The notes: generated by a model not told the origin, from the letters alone. Positions 2,756 through 11,482 are shown, counted from the first letter of the stretch. The stretch is DNA of 64,000 nucleotides from an uncultured Gammaproteobacteria bacterium (GCA_964610465.1 CAZSWA010000006.1:4332-68331); one strand, 5' to 3'. Numbers and translations are program-made.

Positions 2756-3727
2756 ATGGATGCGTTTACCACACACAAAGAATCAATAGATGATAAAGAA
2801 ATCCTTGACGCATATTCTCATGCAGTTATCAACGTTGTTGAAAAAGTAGGTCCGGCAGTTGTCAAAGTTGATGTTATACGCACCAATGGCAATCCATATC
2901 TTCAGGAGCAACAAGGATTGGGTTCGGGAGTTATCATAACGCCTGATGGATTTATGATAACCAATCATCATGTCATCGATGGAGCCAAAAAAATTGAAGT
3001 ATCTTTGACAAACGGTAAGAACTACAAAGCACAAATCATAGGAAAAGATGCGGCAACTGATACGGCGCTTTTGCGTTTGCCAACCAATGATTTACCCTTT
3101 GCAGAGTTTGGCAATTCAGACCGCATTAAAGTTGGACAGCTGGCAATTGCGATAGGCAATCCTCTTGGTTTCCAGAGCACTGTCTCAACAGGTGTTGTCT
3201 CAGCACTTGGAAGGTCACTTCGAAGCGACGCAGGAAGGCTTATTGAAAATGTTATCCAGACTGATGCATTATTAAATCCTGGTAATAGTGGTGGACCATT
3301 GGTTAATAGCAATGGACAAATTATTGGAATCAATACTGCAATGATTCCAATGGCACAGGGAATTGGTTTGGCAATTCCTTCCAATACAGTTTCCTGGGTA
3401 GTTAGTGAACTTCTCTCAAAAGGCAAAGTACAAAGAGCGTATCTTGGTATTTTGGGAAGAGGGCGGCCGCTTGAGAGGCAACTGCAGCGCTATTTTAAAT
3501 TAACCAATGACACCTGTGTTGAGATAATTCATGTGGAGCCAAAAAGTCCGTCCCGTGGACTTCTGCAAATAGGAGATTTTATTGTTGCATTAAATGGTCA
3601 GAAAGTAACCAGCATTGATGATTTGCACAAATATATGTCGCGCAAACCAGGAGGTACTCTTTTTAAGTTGACTATAGTGAGAGATTTTAAGAAGAGAAAT
3701 ATCTATATCACCGCAGGCGTAGCGTAA
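2756..3727 (+). CDS. HtrA/DegP-family trypsin-like serine protease with C-terminal PDZ domain
   Basis: Catalytic triad context TNHHV / DTALLRL / GNSGGPL; PDZ-like C-terminus. Confidence 0.85.
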   Translation: MDAFTTHKESIDDKEILDAYSHAVINVVEKVGPAVVKVDVIRTNGNPYLQEQQGLGSGVIITPDGFMITNHHVIDGAKKIEVSLTNGKNYKAQIIGKDAATDTALLRLPTNDLPFAEFGNSDRIKVGQLAIAIGNPLGFQSTVSTGVVSALGRSLRSDAGRLIENVIQTDALLNPGNSGGPLVNSNGQIIGINTAMIPMAQGIGLAIPSNTVSWVVSELLSKGKVQRAYLGILGRGRPLERQLQRYFKLTNDTCVEIIHVEPKSPSRGLLQIGDFIVALNGQKVTSIDDLHKYMSRKPGGTLFKLTIVRDFKKRNIYITAGVA

Positions 3728-4710: not shown

Positions 4711-5358
4711 ATGAACAAAACAACAGTTGTTCCATTAAAAACTTTACAAGATAAATGGACCACACTTGCTGATGGAAAAACTTTACAACAAACAGTAGAT
4801 GCGTTAGAACAAAATGGATTCCATACTATTGTCGTAGACAATGCTGAAGAAGCCAAACAAAAAGCATTAGAATTACTGCCCATTGGTTCACAGGTTTTTA
4901 CTATGACTTCCAAAACTCTTGAAAAAATCGGGCTTGCCCAAAAAATTCAAGAATCAGGTGAATATGATTCAGTAAAAAACGCGCTTACTAAATTGGATAG
5001 AAATACGCAAGGGAGAAAAATGCAAATACTGGGAAGCGCTCCGGAATATGCAGTGGGTAGTGTACATGCGGTAACTACTGATGGACACGTACTTATCGCG
5101 TCACGTTCAGGAAGCCAATTACCAGGATATGTGTATGGGGCAGACCATGTAATTTGGATAGTAAGTACACAAAAAATAGTAAAAAATATTGATGAGGGAA
5201 TAAAAAGAATTTATGAGCATGTATTACCGCTTGAGTCTCAAAGGGTAAGAGAAGTCTACGGTATGCCCGAAAGCAGTGTTGATAAATTACTTATATTCAA
5301 CAGAGAACGCCCGGGAAGAATAACAGTTATTCTGGTAAAAGAAAAGTTAGGCTTCTAA
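4711..5358 (+). CDS. LUD-domain (LutC/YkgG-like, DUF162) protein
   Basis: 215 aa; overall similarity in motif order to lactate-utilisation LutC family; modest certainty. Confidence 0.4.
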   Translation: MNKTTVVPLKTLQDKWTTLADGKTLQQTVDALEQNGFHTIVVDNAEEAKQKALELLPIGSQVFTMTSKTLEKIGLAQKIQESGEYDSVKNALTKLDRNTQGRKMQILGSAPEYAVGSVHAVTTDGHVLIASRSGSQLPGYVYGADHVIWIVSTQKIVKNIDEGIKRIYEHVLPLESQRVREVYGMPESSVDKLLIFNRERPGRITVILVKEKLGF

Positions 5359-5432
5359 ATACTTGTAAAATTAAATATTGTATTTATACAACTACTACAT
5401 TATAATCTCTTTATCTCAGTAGTATATAAAAA

Positions 5433-6806
5433 ATGGCAGCTGAAATAAGAGAACAATCAAATTATTCTTCAAGGTCCCCTCAAGAACTCATCCGTGCAAA
5501 AATAGAAACAGAACGTTTGGAAACGATACCTCTTGCTCATGTAAAAACAGAACATGCGTTAGTTGATGAATCTCACGCAAAAGATTTAGGAAACTCTATG
5601 AAGCAGAAAAGAGGACAAATATCTCCGATAGTCGTGAGAGCAAGAATGGAAGATAATGAAGTTGTATATGATGTAATAGATGGGTTCCATAGGACTGAAG
5701 GGAAAAAATTAAATGGGGATGAAAACATAAATGCTACTGTTGTATATAATTGTTCTGATGAAGAGATGTTTGATTTGAGAATACTCGCTGCAAGTTCTGT
5801 ACGTTCTGTTCAATATCCTCGTATTGCTCAATGGATTTCACGATCATTTGACCAAACACCATGGAAAGAAAAAGGTTTAAATGTAGCTCAAGCGTTTGGT
5901 ATCGCTGTAAATGATAGTGTAAAAACTCGAGGCATTGAATTAAATCCGGAAGAAATTGAAGACCTGAAAGAATGGGTGCAGGGGAAAACACAAAAATGGG
6001 GAAAAAGTATCGCTGGAACGTATCAAATTTTACGTGTTGTATCAAATGCTGATCCTGATCTTGTAAAGCAAGTACGAACCTCTGGAGGTGGAAAAGATAG
6101 AAACGGAAGAATTACACCTGCTCGCTTACAGACAGTAGTTGAACAGTTTCCTGGAGAAAAGAATTTTGAGACTCAAAGAGCAGTTCTTAAAGTAGTTGTT
6201 GAAAAAAGACTCTATGCAGAAGAAACTGCTCAACTGGTAAGAGATGTACAAAAACATATACAACCTGGTATGAGCGAGTCAGAAATTTATGAAGTTGCCA
6301 ATAACATTGTGATTACCCATCAGGTATTTCCTGAGAGAGATTCTCAAAAAGATGAATTGGGAGGATGGGATGCGTCAGTAGATGAATTTAGAGAGAAACC
6401 TCATAAAAAACGGACGAGGGCATCTGCAAAAATAATACAAGCTGAAGTAGTAGAAGAACTTCGAAAGCATAGGGATGAAAACAAGAGTCTAAGGAAAGAG
6501 AATGAAAGCTTAAAAACAAAAAATGCTATGCTGGAAGATAGATTGAGAGAACAAAAAGCAGGAACTGATACACTGGGTAGACTCGCTACTCGTATAACAG
6601 AATGGATAGAAACCGCGACATATCTTACAAAAAATGAAAGAGTATGTCTTGAAAGAGTATTTCTCATGCAGGAAAATATAGATGTCGTTGCAAGGTCCTT
6701 CAATATAGCTCCTATGCAGGTATCAAAATTTATACAGAGTGCTCTTTATAGGAAAGGTGTTGAAGAACTAGCAAAGCATAATCCATACTCTTCTCAAACT
6801 AATTAA
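5433..6806 (+). CDS. ParB-like nuclease (ParB/Srx) domain protein with coiled coil and C-terminal sigma-70 region-4-like HTH
   Basis: N-terminal ISPIVVRAR...VIDGFHRTEG (ParB N-domain DGxHR motif); heptad-rich segment KSLRKENESLKTKNAMLEDRLREQ; C-terminal LTKNERVCLERVFLMQENIDVVARSFNIAPMQVSKFIQSAL resembles sigma70_r4. Confidence 0.5.
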   Translation: MAAEIREQSNYSSRSPQELIRAKIETERLETIPLAHVKTEHALVDESHAKDLGNSMKQKRGQISPIVVRARMEDNEVVYDVIDGFHRTEGKKLNGDENINATVVYNCSDEEMFDLRILAASSVRSVQYPRIAQWISRSFDQTPWKEKGLNVAQAFGIAVNDSVKTRGIELNPEEIEDLKEWVQGKTQKWGKSIAGTYQILRVVSNADPDLVKQVRTSGGGKDRNGRITPARLQTVVEQFPGEKNFETQRAVLKVVVEKRLYAEETAQLVRDVQKHIQPGMSESEIYEVANNIVITHQVFPERDSQKDELGGWDASVDEFREKPHKKRTRASAKIIQAEVVEELRKHRDENKSLRKENESLKTKNAMLEDRLREQKAGTDTLGRLATRITEWIETATYLTKNERVCLERVFLMQENIDVVARSFNIAPMQVSKFIQSALYRKGVEELAKHNPYSSQTN

Positions 6807-6825
6807 AGTTTAATAGTTAGGACAA

Positions 6826-7284
6826 TTGATATCGTGGAATATGAAAAAATCCAAGATGAATAAACAGATTACAGTTATTGCAGGTGTGGTAATAAAAGAC
6901 AATAAAGTTTTAATGGTTTTGCGTAATGAAGAGGAGCAACCGGATGCGCATCTCAAATGGGAATTTCCTGGAGGCAAAGTTGATTTTAGCGAAACAATAG
7001 AAGAATCACTCGCAAGAGAATTTTTGGAAGAAACAGGGGTTGAGGTAAAAGTGAAGGAACTTTTGCCATTTGTCCAGACAAGCTATTGGAACTATGAATG
7101 GGGAACACAGCAAACTCTTTGTTTTGTATTTCTTTGTGAATTTATCAAACAGCATGCTGTTCCATTAGATCATCATGTAAAGAAAATTGAGTGGATTGAG
7201 ATTGAGAAAATAAAAGATTTAGCATCACTTCCCGGAACAAATGAGGTAATAGAGATTGTGAAGAAAGAATTGGCAATAAGTTAA
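6826..7284 (+). CDS. NUDIX hydrolase
   Basis: Nudix box GGKVDFSETIEESLAREFLEETGV. Confidence 0.8.
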   Translation: MISWNMKKSKMNKQITVIAGVVIKDNKVLMVLRNEEEQPDAHLKWEFPGGKVDFSETIEESLAREFLEETGVEVKVKELLPFVQTSYWNYEWGTQQTLCFVFLCEFIKQHAVPLDHHVKKIEWIEIEKIKDLASLPGTNEVIEIVKKELAIS

Positions 7285-7320
7285 TTTTTCACGAAGTCTC
7301 TCTCCTTTTAGGAGAAGGAA

Positions 7321-7776
7321 TTATGACTTACTTAGCTCCTCTTTCACAATCTTGCTTACCAGGCTTCCGTCTGCTTTACCTTTAACTTTAGGCATAAGAG
7401 CACCCATAACTTTGCCCATATCTTGAGGTGAGGAAGCACCTGTTTGCGTGATAGCATCTGCGACTAGCTTTTTTATTTCCTCTTCTCCCATTTGCTCAGG
7501 CATATATTTCTGAAGAATTGCAAGTTCTTTTTCTTCTTTCTCAGCTAAGTCTTTTCTTCCACCAGTGGTAAATTGTTCAATAGAATCTCTGTGCTGTTTG
7601 ACTTCTCTTTGGATTACTGTCATGACATCCTCGTCATTGGCTTCATAATTTGCTCCGGCTTTTTGGATTTCATAATAATTGATAGCTGATAAAAGCATGC
7701 GAAGCACAGAAGTTCTGGTCGTATCTTTGGCAAGCATGGATTGTTTGAGCTCGTCACGAAGTTGTTGCTTTAACAT
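7321..7776 (-). CDS. GatB/YqeY domain-containing protein
   Basis: 151 aa; typical YqeY N-terminus MLKQQLRDELKQSMLAKD..R..LRMLLSAI. Confidence 0.8.
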   Translation of the reverse strand: MLKQQLRDELKQSMLAKDTTRTSVLRMLLSAINYYEIQKAGANYEANDEDVMTVIQREVKQHRDSIEQFTTGGRKDLAEKEEKELAILQKYMPEQMGEEEIKKLVADAITQTGASSPQDMGKVMGALMPKVKGKADGSLVSKIVKEELSKS

Positions 7777-7869
7777 ATGAGTATTATAGCATTTTCGAAT
7801 GGGAGTTCACAGTTATTGGTTCACTGGAGATAAAACATTATTACTAATTGGACTGAAATGTCAACTAAA

Positions 7870-8259
7870 TTACTTCTTATCTTGTTTTGTTTGTTCTTGA
7901 TGTAGTGTCTGTTGTCCTGTGAATGGTCTGCCTCCATCATAGCCTTTGGTATGAAATTGTCTTCCTTCACCTTCAGATGTAATAGGCTTTCTTATACCCT
8001 TAGACCGCATATCATACTCCGCGTCAAAAATTCTAGTAATATCCCACTCAGGATTATTACCTTTTGCATGTTTTTCTAGGTTAGCAAACTCCTTATCATA
8101 TCTATCTTCTTCACCTTTGGACATATCTTCAATCCAATCATTAGCAGAACGTGCTATATAACCTTCAGGTATATTACCAGTAGCACCTGGAGGAGTAGGC
8201 GGTCTCTGTGCACGCTTTTTAGCAACTTGGTCATAGCTGCGTGGATTTCTTTCTGTCAT
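7870..8259 (-). CDS. Hypothetical protein (charged, no TM)
   Basis: 129-aa ORF with coding-like composition; no recognisable motif. Confidence 0.3.
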   Translation of the reverse strand: MTERNPRSYDQVAKKRAQRPPTPPGATGNIPEGYIARSANDWIEDMSKGEEDRYDKEFANLEKHAKGNNPEWDITRIFDAEYDMRSKGIRKPITSEGEGRQFHTKGYDGGRPFTGQQTLHQEQTKQDKK

Positions 8260-8301
8260 ACTATGAGCAATTATAGCCTATAAAGGCTAAGTGTTCAATA
8301 T

Positions 8302-9735
8302 TTACCTTTTTATTTTTTCTAATTCCGGTTGGAGTTCTTTTATTCTTTTGAGCAAATAGTCTCGATTATTTTTCTCCAAATCTTCATCCACTTCTTCAAA
8401 AAGTTTTTGTAAAATCCGGCCGATGATTGGTCCGGGTTTAATATCAAGCTCTTTCATAACATCATTGCCATCAACTACCAGATTTTTGATAGAAAAAGGT
8501 TCAGGAGCAAGTTGTTCTTCAAGCCGTTTTTTAAATAATTTAAGTCTCCAGCTTTCTGCAGTTTGAGTACCTCCACCAAGTCTGTCTCCAATGCGAAGTT
8601 CCATCATATCCTTCACATTTTCAACCCCAACGCGCCTTATAAACCTTCTGACCGCAGCATCAGTGATGTGCTCATCAACTGTAAACATATGCCATCTGAC
8701 AAGCGTCACGATTTTCTGTTTGTCTTTTCTGGAAAACCGTAATCTATCTGCTATCTCTGCAGCAATCTTTGCGCCTTCTATCTCGTGATTGTGGAAAATA
8801 ACATACCCATGCTCATCTGTTGCTGCAACTTTTGGCTTGCCGATGTCATGGATAAGTGCTGCCAAACGGACAACCGGGTCAGATGCTGGAGTAAATTTAA
8901 GAGAAAGAATATTGTGAGTGAAGACATCTGTTTTGTGATGTCTGCCAGGACGCTCCTGAGATACGTCAATACCTTCAAGAAGTTCCGGGATAATATAGTT
9001 TAAAAGTCCTGTATTTTTAAGAAGCATGATACCTTCATACGGATAGTTGCTTGTCAGGATTTTGAGTAACTCATCGTGGATTCTTTCTTTGGATATCTCA
9101 GAAAGAAGCCGCGCATCTTGTACAATTGCTTGAAATGTCCTCTCGTCAATGGTAAATCCAAGCTGTGTTGCTAGGCGAATCGCACGCATGAGACGAAGCG
9201 CATCTTCTTTAAATCTAAGATTTGGATCGCCGACTGCACGTAACACTTTATTTCTTATATCTTCCTGTCCATAGTAAGGGTCGATAAGGTGAGTGTGTAG
9301 TCGATTGTCTTCAGTACGCACCTCAAGCGCAATTGCGTTGATAGTAAAATCACGACGGGACAAATCTTCCTCAACTGTTTTGCCCCACTCAACCCCTGCG
9401 GGATGGCGTCTATCTTTATATTCTTTTTCAGTTCTATATGTAGTAATTTCAAGTACTTCACTTTTTTCTTGTGAGTCTGGCACGCCAAAATTCTCTAACG
9501 CTTCGGTTGGTAAACCTACCGTACCAAACTGATTATCATAAAAACCGCCAGGAAAAAGTTTGAGAATTTGTTCGGGTGTAGCATTGGTGGTAAAATCCCA
9601 GTCGCTTGTTGGTCTGCCAAGAATCAAATCTCTCACACATCCACCAACCAGATAAATTTGAAATCCAGCTTCATGAAATATTCTATTTACTTTTAGTACA
9701 TGTGCTGGAATACCTTCGACCATACCTTGTCCCAT
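8302..9735 (-). CDS. cca: CCA-adding tRNA nucleotidyltransferase with HD domain
   Basis: Head domain GGCVRDLILGRPTSDWDFTT; HD motif LAALIHDIGKP; 477 aa. Confidence 0.8.
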   Translation of the reverse strand: MGQGMVEGIPAHVLKVNRIFHEAGFQIYLVGGCVRDLILGRPTSDWDFTTNATPEQILKLFPGGFYDNQFGTVGLPTEALENFGVPDSQEKSEVLEITTYRTEKEYKDRRHPAGVEWGKTVEEDLSRRDFTINAIALEVRTEDNRLHTHLIDPYYGQEDIRNKVLRAVGDPNLRFKEDALRLMRAIRLATQLGFTIDERTFQAIVQDARLLSEISKERIHDELLKILTSNYPYEGIMLLKNTGLLNYIIPELLEGIDVSQERPGRHHKTDVFTHNILSLKFTPASDPVVRLAALIHDIGKPKVAATDEHGYVIFHNHEIEGAKIAAEIADRLRFSRKDKQKIVTLVRWHMFTVDEHITDAAVRRFIRRVGVENVKDMMELRIGDRLGGGTQTAESWRLKLFKKRLEEQLAPEPFSIKNLVVDGNDVMKELDIKPGPIIGRILQKLFEEVDEDLEKNNRDYLLKRIKELQPELEKIKR

Positions 9736-9772
9736 GCAGTGGGGTCTGCTATAGTATATCAGATAAAATCAT

Positions 9773-11482
9773 ATGAAAAAGTGGGAAATCTTAGAAGAAT
9801 CAAGAATTAAGAATCCTGCCAAGGGCGAGGCTCGCCAAAAGCGGCAAGAATTAAGAATAGAAAAAAATATAGAAATTCTACTTAAAAATAGGAGACTAAC
9901 AAGTCAAAAAGAAATTGATGAATTTCTACATCCAAGTCTTGATGAAATTACAGCAGAGAAGGTTGGGATAGATAAAAAACAACTGAAAAAAGCGTTGACG
10001 AGAATTAAAAAGGCGATGAAAGAGAAAGAGCAAATTGTAATCTTTGGTGACTATGATGTTGATGGAATTACTGCAACTGCAATTCTTTGGGAAACACTTA
10101 ATTCTATGAGTGCAACTGCTATTCCATATATCCCGAACAGATTTGAAGAAGGATATGGGCTTTCTGTCATTGGAATTACCAATCTTGAATCACAAATTAC
10201 CAACACAAAACTCATTATTACTGTGGATAACGGAATTGTTGCCAATGAAGCAGTGGATTTTGCCAATAGTCACGGGATAGATGTAATTATCACTGATCAT
10301 CACACTATTGGTGAGAAATTGCCAAACGCTCATGCGATTGTGCATACTACTAAATTGTGTGGAGCAGGAATTGCATATGCGGTTGCGCAAGAATTAAGAA
10401 TTAAGAATCAAGAATCAAGGAGTAAAGAAGAGGATAACCATTTGGAATTAGCTGCGTTGGGGACAGTTGCTGATTTGGTTCCATTGGTTGGTGCAAATCG
10501 GGCAATTGTGAAATTTGGCATAGAGAAACTAAATACAACAAGAAGATTTGGTCTTCTTGAACTCTACAAGCTTGCCGGTCTTAGAAGTAAGTTCGGAGTA
10601 TATGAAATAGGATATATCATTGGACCGCGTCTTAATGCAGCAGGAAGAATTGAAACAGCAATGGATAGTTTAAGACTTTTGTGTACCAGAAATCGGGAAA
10701 GAGCAGAAGAGCTTGCAGCCAAACTTGAGATTATCAATAAAGAAAGACAAATGCTCATGAAAGAATCAGCCGAACATGCCAAGCTATATGTGAAAACAAA
10801 TCAAACGACTATCAAAAAAATACTGGTTGTATCTCATGAATCATATCAAGAAGGAGTGATAGGGCTTATCGCAGGACGTTTAGTTGAGGAATTTTACCGT
10901 CCGACTATTATTATTTCCAAAAAAGAAAAAGTCAGCAAAGCCTCTGCCCGTTCAATTCATGGGTTTAATATTATTGAATTTTTGCGGGGTGCATCTGACT
11001 TTTTTGTCAATGTCGGTGGTCATCCAATGGCAGCAGGATTTACTGTAGAGACTGAGAAAATTGAATTATTGCAGCAAACGCTTGAGCAAATGGCAGAAAA
11101 TTTACTAAATGACGGACATTTTATACGGAACTTGCGGATTGATTGTGAAATTCCGCTTGTTTCTATTACCAATACGTTTTATAACAGTCTTCAGATTCTG
11201 GCTCCTTTTGGCATGAATAATCCAGAACCTGTTTTTGCAAGTAAAAAGGTAACTATTGAGGACATGAGACTTATGGGTAAAGAGCAACAGCATCTGCGTC
11301 TTAGTGTAAGTCAAGAAAATGCAGTATTTGAAGCAGTATGTTTTGGCATGGGAGAGCTTGGAACAAAACTTAAGATAGGAGACAAAATTGATATTGCATA
11401 CACAATAGATGAAAATAGCTGGAATGGAAATACAAAGTTACAACTGAAGGTGAAGGATATACAAACTCTGCAAGAAGACTAA
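9773..11482 (+). CDS. recJ: Single-stranded-DNA-specific exonuclease RecJ
   Basis: DHH motifs (GDYDVDGITATAIL, DHH), DHHA1 region, C-terminal OB-like domain; 569 aa. Confidence 0.85.
   Translation: MKKWEILEESRIKNPAKGEARQKRQELRIEKNIEILLKNRRLTSQKEIDEFLHPSLDEITAEKVGIDKKQLKKALTRIKKAMKEKEQIVIFGDYDVDGITATAILWETLNSMSATAIPYIPNRFEEGYGLSVIGITNLESQITNTKLIITVDNGIVANEAVDFANSHGIDVIITDHHTIGEKLPNAHAIVHTTKLCGAGIAYAVAQELRIKNQESRSKEEDNHLELAALGTVADLVPLVGANRAIVKFGIEKLNTTRRFGLLELYKLAGLRSKFGVYEIGYIIGPRLNAAGRIETAMDSLRLLCTRNRERAEELAAKLEIINKERQMLMKESAEHAKLYVKTNQTTIKKILVVSHESYQEGVIGLIAGRLVEEFYRPTIIISKKEKVSKASARSIHGFNIIEFLRGASDFFVNVGGHPMAAGFTVETEKIELLQQTLEQMAENLLNDGHFIRNLRIDCEIPLVSITNTFYNSLQILAPFGMNNPEPVFASKKVTIEDMRLMGKEQQHLRLSVSQENAVFEAVCFGMGELGTKLKIGDKIDIAYTIDENSWNGNTKLQLKVKDIQTLQED

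Follow-up and report, generated by a model that had tools for sequence, protein, structure and literature searches.

A ParB paralogue family of Microgenomates-group bacteria with a leucine zipper and a sigma-70 region-4-like module in place of the C-terminal dimerisation domain

Gene and Domain Architecture

The subject of this study is an open reading frame (ORF) on the + strand, at positions 5433..6806 of a 64,000-nucleotide stretch of DNA from an uncultured Gammaproteobacteria bacterium (GCA_964610465.1, CAZSWA010000006.1:4332-68331), called the window in the following. The ORF starts with ATG, is complete and encodes a ParB-like protein of 457 amino acids (aa); it is real, and its product is identical to a protein encoded on a 71.8-kb contig of a public assembly. 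In the databases its relatives are labelled 'hypothetical protein' or 'ParB/Sulfiredoxin domain-containing protein', and nothing more. A direct Pfam scan of the protein gives coiled-coil noise only, with no ParBc match. Because the sequence profiles of Pfam and HMMER missed ParB, structure prediction and fold search were needed.

The AlphaFold model, built from an alignment of 40 sequences (A1), has a mean predicted local distance difference test score (pLDDT) of 84.8, with disorder confined to residues 303-338 (pLDDT <50), and it resolves five parts, all encoded on the + strand. These are a ParB/Srx N-terminal domain (NTD) of the ParB-CTPase fold (residues ~25-120, 5505..5792), a ParB-type helical DNA-binding domain (DBD) with a helix-turn-helix (HTH), assigned by Foldseek and hhalign (residues ~121-295, 5793..6317), a disordered linker (residues ~296-337, 6318..6443), a leucine-zipper-like coiled coil closing with W391-W392 (residues ~338-394, 6444..6614), and an HTH resembling region 4 of sigma-70, denoted sigma-4 below (residues ~395-450, YLTxxER..., 6615..6782).

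An earlier note, made on this DNA, had proposed an architecture of ParB/Srx domain, coiled coil and sigma-4 module. All three modules are upheld here, and the four motif strings that it quoted are found at residues 64-71, 81-90, 351-374 and 398-433. The statement of the same note that an HTH is lacking where ParB usually has it has to be corrected, as Foldseek and hhalign place an HTH DBD exactly there. Since residues ~121-295 thus form a ParB-type HTH DBD in its usual position, the protein has the full ParB-like core of NTD and DBD, and it is the C-terminal dimerisation domain that is replaced, by the zipper and the sigma-4 module.

The assignment of the central domain is based on two kinds of comparison. 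The top Foldseek matches are chains of ParB, Noc and KorB, aligned over ~250 columns that span both the NTD and the HTH DBD (E 3e-6 to 1e-4). With hhalign, residues 43-276 map to residues 41-219 of Bacillus subtilis Spo0J, the recognition helix included, such that WGKSIAGTYQILRVV of the family protein is aligned with the ParB recognition helix GKSRPHIANHLRLL. The Spo0J query sequence was checked and is identical to PDB 6sdk, residues 21-218, and hhalign against a ParB from the Candidate Phyla Radiation (CPR) gives the same register. The DBD is longer than its ParB counterpart, the additional residues being ~135-185.

Predicted Nucleotide Pocket

The NTD has the characteristic alpha/beta fold of the ParB/Srx superfamily and is the best-conserved region of the family (0.69). 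For the pocket we use the definition of Kaljevic et al. (2025, PMC12704722), that is, a C-motif (box I) made up of a helix and a loop that both contact the base, a box II with GxxR, and a box III. The C-motif equivalent consists of the helix HAKDLGNSMKQK, the loop RGQISP and the strand IVVRAR (residues 46-72, 5568..5648, + strand), while box II, or the P-motif, is D83-G84-F85-H86-R87 (5679..5693, + strand), which hhalign aligns with the GERR of ParB. In no other part of the protein is conservation as high as in these two, of which the former has the consensus HAxxLGxSMxxxRGQxSPIxVRAR: H48, L52 and Q62 are invariant in alignment A1, G84 and R87 are invariant across 113 family members, and H48, Q62, D83 and H86 are conserved in at least 90% of the same 113. 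F85 stands where GERR has its Glu, the position being Phe or Tyr across the family, and the box as a whole is of the form G-x-H-R, as is that of sulfiredoxin (GCHR). The earlier note had pointed to the GxxRxxA motif of CTP binding, of which the GxxR part is present and invariant (G84-F-H-R87-T-E-G90) but the final Ala is usually Gly.

The canonical CTPase motifs QPR, GERR and ENxQR are all missing, the aligned positions in the family being TE-ALID, DGFHR and AASSVR, respectively. The stretch equivalent to box III, YNCSDEEMFDLRILAASSVRSVQYPR (residues 105-130, 5745..5822, + strand), is conserved and lacks the E-N-x-Q-R of canonical ParB. The PDB entries of the Myxococcus xanthus ParB mutants Q52A/E93A identify the Gln of 'QPR' as Q52 and the Glu of 'GERR' as E93. 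Because this Gln, this Glu and ENxQR are missing from the family, canonical hydrolysis has probably been lost or is slow, and the switch would then be slow or binding-only.

Nucleotide binding as such, on the other hand, has very likely been retained, judging from the motifs. As to which nucleotide, ATP-binding proteins of the ParB fold carry a G-x-H-R box (GQHR, GEHR, GEHR; PMC12704722), and since box II of the family is also G-x-H-R, ATP would seem at least as likely as CTP. It should be noted that, according to the authors of that survey, nucleotide specificity is not predictable from sequence or AlphaFold 3 (PMC12704722).

Linker, Zipper and Interchangeable Tail

Across the family the linker is 13-101 aa long (median 58) and ~25% acidic. 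The coiled coil that follows is in clean heptad register, with L353/L360/L367 at one core position and N350/N357/N364 at the other, an arrangement which we take to be the pattern of a GCN4-type dimeric zipper. W391-W392 at its end are near-invariant, and E402 of the sigma-4-like HTH is invariant in A1.

Both in fold and in alignment, the C-terminal ~55 residues correspond to sigma-70 region 4. When the family hidden Markov model is compared with the PDB, the tail matches GerE, NarL and FliA, GerE and NarL more weakly (E 0.0044-0.03). No Sigma70_r2 match was obtained in the protein or its relatives, and the sigma-like part is limited to residues ~395-450. The possibility that the protein is itself a sigma factor could accordingly be ruled out, because regions 2 and 3 are missing.

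The NTD and DBD are present in all 177 collected members, and the family sigma-4 module in 122 of them. In three members (P0072, P0075 and P0147) the C-terminus is formed instead by an OmpR-type winged helix, which scores above the Pfam cut-off for Trans_reg_C, one (P0175) has a weak GerE match, and the remaining members that lack sigma-4 are fragments or have no assigned tail. That the ParB-like core is conserved while DNA-binding ends of transcription factors interchange argues that the tail serves DNA or promoter binding.

Family Size and Host Lineage

A word-indexed search gave 85 homologues. The exhaustive profile search, in which representatives stand for clusters at 50% identity, gave 624 representatives at E<=1e-3 and 354 at E<=1e-30, so that the family comprises at least 354 clusters; among the matches listed, most align with the profile nearly end to end. 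The named sources all belong to the Microgenomates group of the CPR, namely Daviesbacteria, Curtissbacteria, Roizmanbacteria, Shapirobacteria, Gottesmanbacteria and Levyibacteriota. We also collected 27 loci that carry the family gene (L001 to L027; coordinates given with a locus number below are those of that locus). One of them, L008, comes from a metagenome-assembled genome (MAG) labelled 'uncultured Gammaproteobacteria' and is identical to L024, a contig of Candidatus Daviesbacteria, at 100% over 7.8 kb and at 99.9-100% over 11.4 kb. On account of this match, the non-CPR taxon labels of related MAG loci (L014-L016, L020, L023 and perhaps L007, 'Limnocylindrales') are probably unreliable as well.

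A tblastn search of phage and plasmid collections gave no match to the 457-aa protein, on which ground an origin from a mobile element was rejected, and the viral fold library returns generic ParB folds only. We conclude that this is a large, uncharacterised family of chromosomal ParB paralogues that is typical of Microgenomates-group CPR bacteria.

Relation to the Partition ParB

The family protein is not the partition ParB of its genome. Firstly, a separate canonical ParB of 276 aa, with NPLQPR, GERRWRA and ENVQR, coexists with it in two loci, L015 (3610-4440, - strand) and L017 (419-1249, - strand), at a distance of 6-9 kb from the family gene; this protein matches the ParBs of the PDB at E 1e-44. 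Secondly, there is no ParA nearby: no ORF with a ParA-type Walker A motif (KGGxGK[ST]) was found in the window or in the 27 loci, and there is none among the annotated neighbours either. Thirdly, QPR, the Glu of GERR and ENxQR are missing. The ParA-binding motif LG-R/K-GL is likewise missing from the N-terminus, MAAEIREQSNYSSRSPQELIRAKIETERLE, and from the family consensus. The best match among the NCBIfam models is Noc (TIGR04285), with 25.7 bits against a cut-off of 315 and over residues 44-114 only. The earlier view that this is not a standard chromosomal ParB or Noc therefore stands, on the basis of the Noc score, the lack of ParA and the canonical ParB in L015 and L017.

The canonical ParB of these two loci itself adjoins a convergent signal-peptidase-like gene, with ribosomal-protein-like and FtsW/RodA-like genes on its other side. 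With no ParA adjacent, this ParB looks like a chromosomal orphan of Curtissbacteria-type genomes.

Genomic Context and Candidate DNA Sites

In the window, the ParB-like gene has an LUD-domain gene immediately upstream and a NUDIX hydrolase gene immediately downstream. The other neighbours are SecD/F-like genes, a GDSL hydrolase, HtrA (2756-3727), a small kinase and an HxlR regulator, together with YqeY, the CCA-adding enzyme, RecJ and AspRS and, farther off, GluRS, PBP1, histidine kinases and PurA. Such housekeeping neighbours indicate an ordinary chromosome. No second copy of the family was found in the window. Between YqeY and the CCA-adding enzyme lies a lysine/glutamate-rich ORF of 129 aa (7870-8259, - strand) with no Pfam match.

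Across the 26 non-redundant loci the flanks consist of variable housekeeping genes, and the one recurrent neighbour is a gene of the sigma-70 family, which directly adjoins the family gene in seven of them. In four of these pairs, which contain an alternative sigma factor of ~260 aa, the two genes converge and are separated by <=10 bp or overlap by 4 bp (L001:8001-10145, L005:7962-10070, L007:9944-12010 and L012:57-2245). In the other three, the sigma gene is primary-like, has the same orientation as the family gene and immediately precedes it, the two being separated by <=5 bp or overlapping by 1 bp (L018:9024-11266, L022:8367-11341 and L023:5275-8476). All seven sigma-adjacent family genes carry the sigma-4 tail. 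Over 22 clustered loci, seven of the eight sigma genes among 323 other genes adjoin the family gene (hypergeometric P 2.4e-6, uncorrected for relatedness). As these seven go back to about four independent lineages, the actual significance is weaker than this value suggests, yet still real.

The primary-like sigma factor of L023 (5275-6810, 511 aa) appears to have two tandem copies of region 4, one of which is ILELRYGLRDGCCYSLEDTARIIGITPKNVWQIEGKALKRL. A different arrangement is seen in L025 (7344-8693), where the family gene (sigma-4-like tail kept, profile positions 26-447) overlaps by 4 bp a downstream gene for a 449-aa protein with Xre-type HTH_3 domains; this overlap suggests an operon with another DNA-binding protein. 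In L004, two tandem family paralogues of 498 and 491 aa with a 4-bp overlap (8077-11045) lie directly downstream of a CD-NTase_C / Cap15 pair (6335-7905) resembling a cyclic-oligonucleotide-based anti-phage signalling system (CBASS). Nearby there are a 1464-aa protein, a serine recombinase and a Fic protein, which gives the locus an island-like appearance. L004 is the sole defence-like or island context, and as such an exception among the loci.

The intergenic region upstream of the gene (5359..5432, + strand) is AT-rich and presumed to be the promoter; it contains the palindrome TTGTATTTATACAA at 5378-5391, but no consensus promoter could be called in it, nor any motif common with the orthologues. 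A perfect 17-bp palindrome, AGAATAACAGTTATTCT, is located at 5317-5333, within the 3' end of the LUD-domain gene and 100 bp before the ATG; the window contains it only once, and nothing comparable precedes the orthologous genes. A search for local direct and inverted repeats gave no convincing operator or parS-like site, and a scan for consensus promoters and terminators found sites no more frequently than in shuffled sequence.

Functional Interpretation

We now consider what the protein might do. The reading that we favour, with a confidence that is only moderate, is that this divergent ParB paralogue is a dimeric, nucleotide-gated DNA-binding regulator of transcription or of the nucleoid, of the kind represented by KorB, VirB, BisD and Noc. 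The ParB-like regulators taken as the model are KorB (PMC11790492), VirB (PMC10770331) and BisD (PMC12409273). According to this proposal, the zipper would take the place of the ParB C-terminal dimerisation domain and hold two chains together, while DNA would be bound by the central HTH as well as by the paired sigma-4 modules. Binding of a nucleotide to the NTD would gate its self-association and hence the DNA-bound state. The sigma-4 or OmpR-type module could anchor the dimer at promoters, possibly at -35-like DNA, or contact RNA polymerase, and the output would be control of transcription or of local nucleoid structure. On this reading the protein would serve neither plasmid or chromosome partition nor DNA cleavage. 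Of the two guesses offered in the earlier note, it is thus the nucleotide-dependent transcription factor that is supported.

A number of observations weigh against this proposal. The sequence likeness to ParB is weak (hhalign E 1.6e-4 to 0.015), and the family profile retrieves no ParB when run with HMMER against the PDB sequences. As regards nucleotide binding, 17 of 28 purified ParB-fold proteins bound no nucleoside triphosphate in vitro (PMC12704722), and a CTP-independent ParB-like protein, ParT, exists (PMC12260392). The association with sigma genes is limited to the seven of 26 loci, and tblastn detected no sigma gene in the window. A cognate DNA site did not emerge either: there are no repeated palindromes in the window, no palindrome is common to the upstream regions of 24 orthologues, and no footprint is seen among L001, L005 and L007, a promoter-like TTGCTT...TATAAT being common to L005 and L007 only. 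Finally, the two putative recognition helices vary from one family member to the next, also at the DNA-contacting positions of the sigma-4 helix, which would fit non-specific binding or diverse specificities.

The main alternative, which we consider possible but unlikely, is a ParA-independent paralogue that organises the chromosome by centromere binding, SMC loading or a nucleoid-occlusion type of action, in which case sigma-4 would be an extra DNA-binding or bridging domain. The full ParB core of NTD and DBD speaks for this option, and so does the setting, as the family gene is chromosomal, usually single-copy and placed among housekeeping genes. In Firmicutes, spo0J lies in the origin-proximal rpsF-ssb-rpsR neighbourhood, and in L026 (1951-5911) the family gene is directly upstream of ychF-rpsF-ssb-rpsR, while in L027 (2335-7407) it is near rpsF-ssb-rpsR; both loci have CtpB and HtrA proteases close by, and HtrA is found in the window too. 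To this can be added the canonical parB within 6-9 kb in L015 and L017, and the fact that Noc is the best NCBIfam match. However, the rpsF/ssb synteny occurs in 3 of 27 loci only, for which reason ychF-rpsF-ssb synteny as evidence of ParB orthology was reduced to a weak lead, and the Noc score is far below its cut-off. Moreover, the LG-R/K-GL motif and ParA are absent, the hydrolysis residues required for the recycling of ParB are missing, and both the exchange of OmpR-type and sigma-4 tails and the adjacency of sigma genes point to transcription.

Another option considered was a DNA-targeted enzyme, modelled on Srx, SerK/SbnI or the ParB-fold toxins, in which the ParB/Srx domain would be catalytic (nuclease, ATPase, kinase or nucleotidyl transfer) and the HTHs would serve only to bring it to DNA or to a protein substrate. 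Catalysis would agree with the extreme conservation seen in the NTD and the H-R box. The enzymes of this fold, however, lack the ParB HTH and the dimerisation module (PMC12704722), whereas the family protein aligns across NTD and DBD; in addition, the box III position lacks a metal-binding acidic cluster, PADLOC shows no membership, and 25 of the 26 loci are free of mobile-element or defence surroundings. We regard this option as improbable. The related suggestion of a regulated nuclease in the earlier note gained nothing from the housekeeping neighbours or from the phage and plasmid searches. Its mention of defence fares no better in view of those neighbours, the lack of phage or plasmid relatives and the lack of a meaningful PADLOC match: membership of a defence system was rejected as PADLOC gave only a 14.8-bit HTH match over the coiled coil and sigma-4, and no match for the tandem paralogues P0035 and P0047.

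Least probable of all is a sigma antagonist or mimic, with the sigma-4 module docked on the beta-flap of RNA polymerase or on an anti-sigma or sigma partner and the ParB part as a tether to DNA, since the OmpR-type winged helix of some members would not bind the beta-flap alike and the adjacent sigma factors belong to different groups.

Returning to the nucleotide-gated regulator, a bolder version of it can be envisaged, which is a good deal more speculative and which we would call rather unlikely. Here, a nucleotide-gated DNA clamp of the ParB type would come with a sigma-region-4 module of its own, in effect KorB fused to its promoter 'latch' KorA. After loading or sliding, the clamp would park at, or hand over, -35-type elements, or engage the RNA polymerase beta-flap. 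If true, the genome-reduced CPR bacteria would gain a global control of transcription that is coupled to ATP/CTP levels and tied to sigma factors.

Nucleoside triphosphate switches of the ParB fold beyond chromosome partition are an active topic, with KorB, VirB, BisD, Noc and the 2025 survey as examples, and the present family adds a large, lineage-wide chromosomal branch in which the ParB DNA-clamp core is kept, the box is G-x-H-R and the hydrolysis residues are dropped. It offers in this way a natural test of how the specificity (ATP or CTP) and the clamp logic of the fold can be rewired. Since few regulators can be recognised in CPR bacteria, one that is conserved and nucleotide-gated would inform the biology of these organisms. 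The protein, of ~50 kDa and predicted with high confidence outside the linker, should lend itself to standard in vitro assays despite coming from an uncultured organism.

Comparison with Known Systems

Canonical ParB/Spo0J and Noc have the same two-domain core as the family protein, in the same order, and Noc provides a precedent for a second chromosomal ParB paralogue that has acquired a new function and coexists with ParB. The family protein differs from both in having no ParA and no LG-R/K-GL, GFHR instead of GERR, and a different C-terminus. KorB of plasmid RK2, VirB of Shigella and BisD of ICEclc resemble it in combining an NTD, an HTH DBD and a putative dimerisation module with no dependence on ParA. 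In these three, however, the CTP pocket is of the GERR type and the gene resides on a plasmid or an integrative and conjugative element, whereas the family protein has DGFHR, no QPR or ENxQR, a chromosomal location in CPR bacteria, and the zipper with the sigma-4 tail. The enzymatic members of the ParB/Srx fold, SbnI, SerK and sulfiredoxin, lack the ParB HTH DBD and the dimerising tail (PMC12704722), and the family protein, unlike them, shows no sign of a Ser or Cys substrate. At the C-terminus, the protein aligns with region 4 of sigma-70, the likeness to the LuxR/GerE HTH being weaker.

A parallel in composition is found in the fold-wide survey of ParB-CTPases by Kaljevic et al. (PNAS, December 2025; PMC12704722), which lists Sigma70 fusions. 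One of these, the phage protein uvig_297896_22, likewise joins a ParB-CTPase fold to a sigma-70-type domain; it binds ATP, and its GxxR R->A mutant lost binding (PMC12704722). Its box II is G-E-H-R and thus has the H-R in common with the G-F-H-R of the family. That the two belong to the same family was rejected, since hhalign with the first 125 aa of the phage protein gives E 0.076, a probability of 0.7% and 43 aligned columns, covering box I-II only; the relationship would seem to be one of fold and motif only. The earlier note had not recognised the architecture. This holds in so far as we found no paper in the literature that describes this CPR family, but not for the combination as such: because ParB-fold/Sigma70 fusions were already catalogued in 2025 (PMC12704722), they are not a new category, and what the CPR family adds to them is a new branch.
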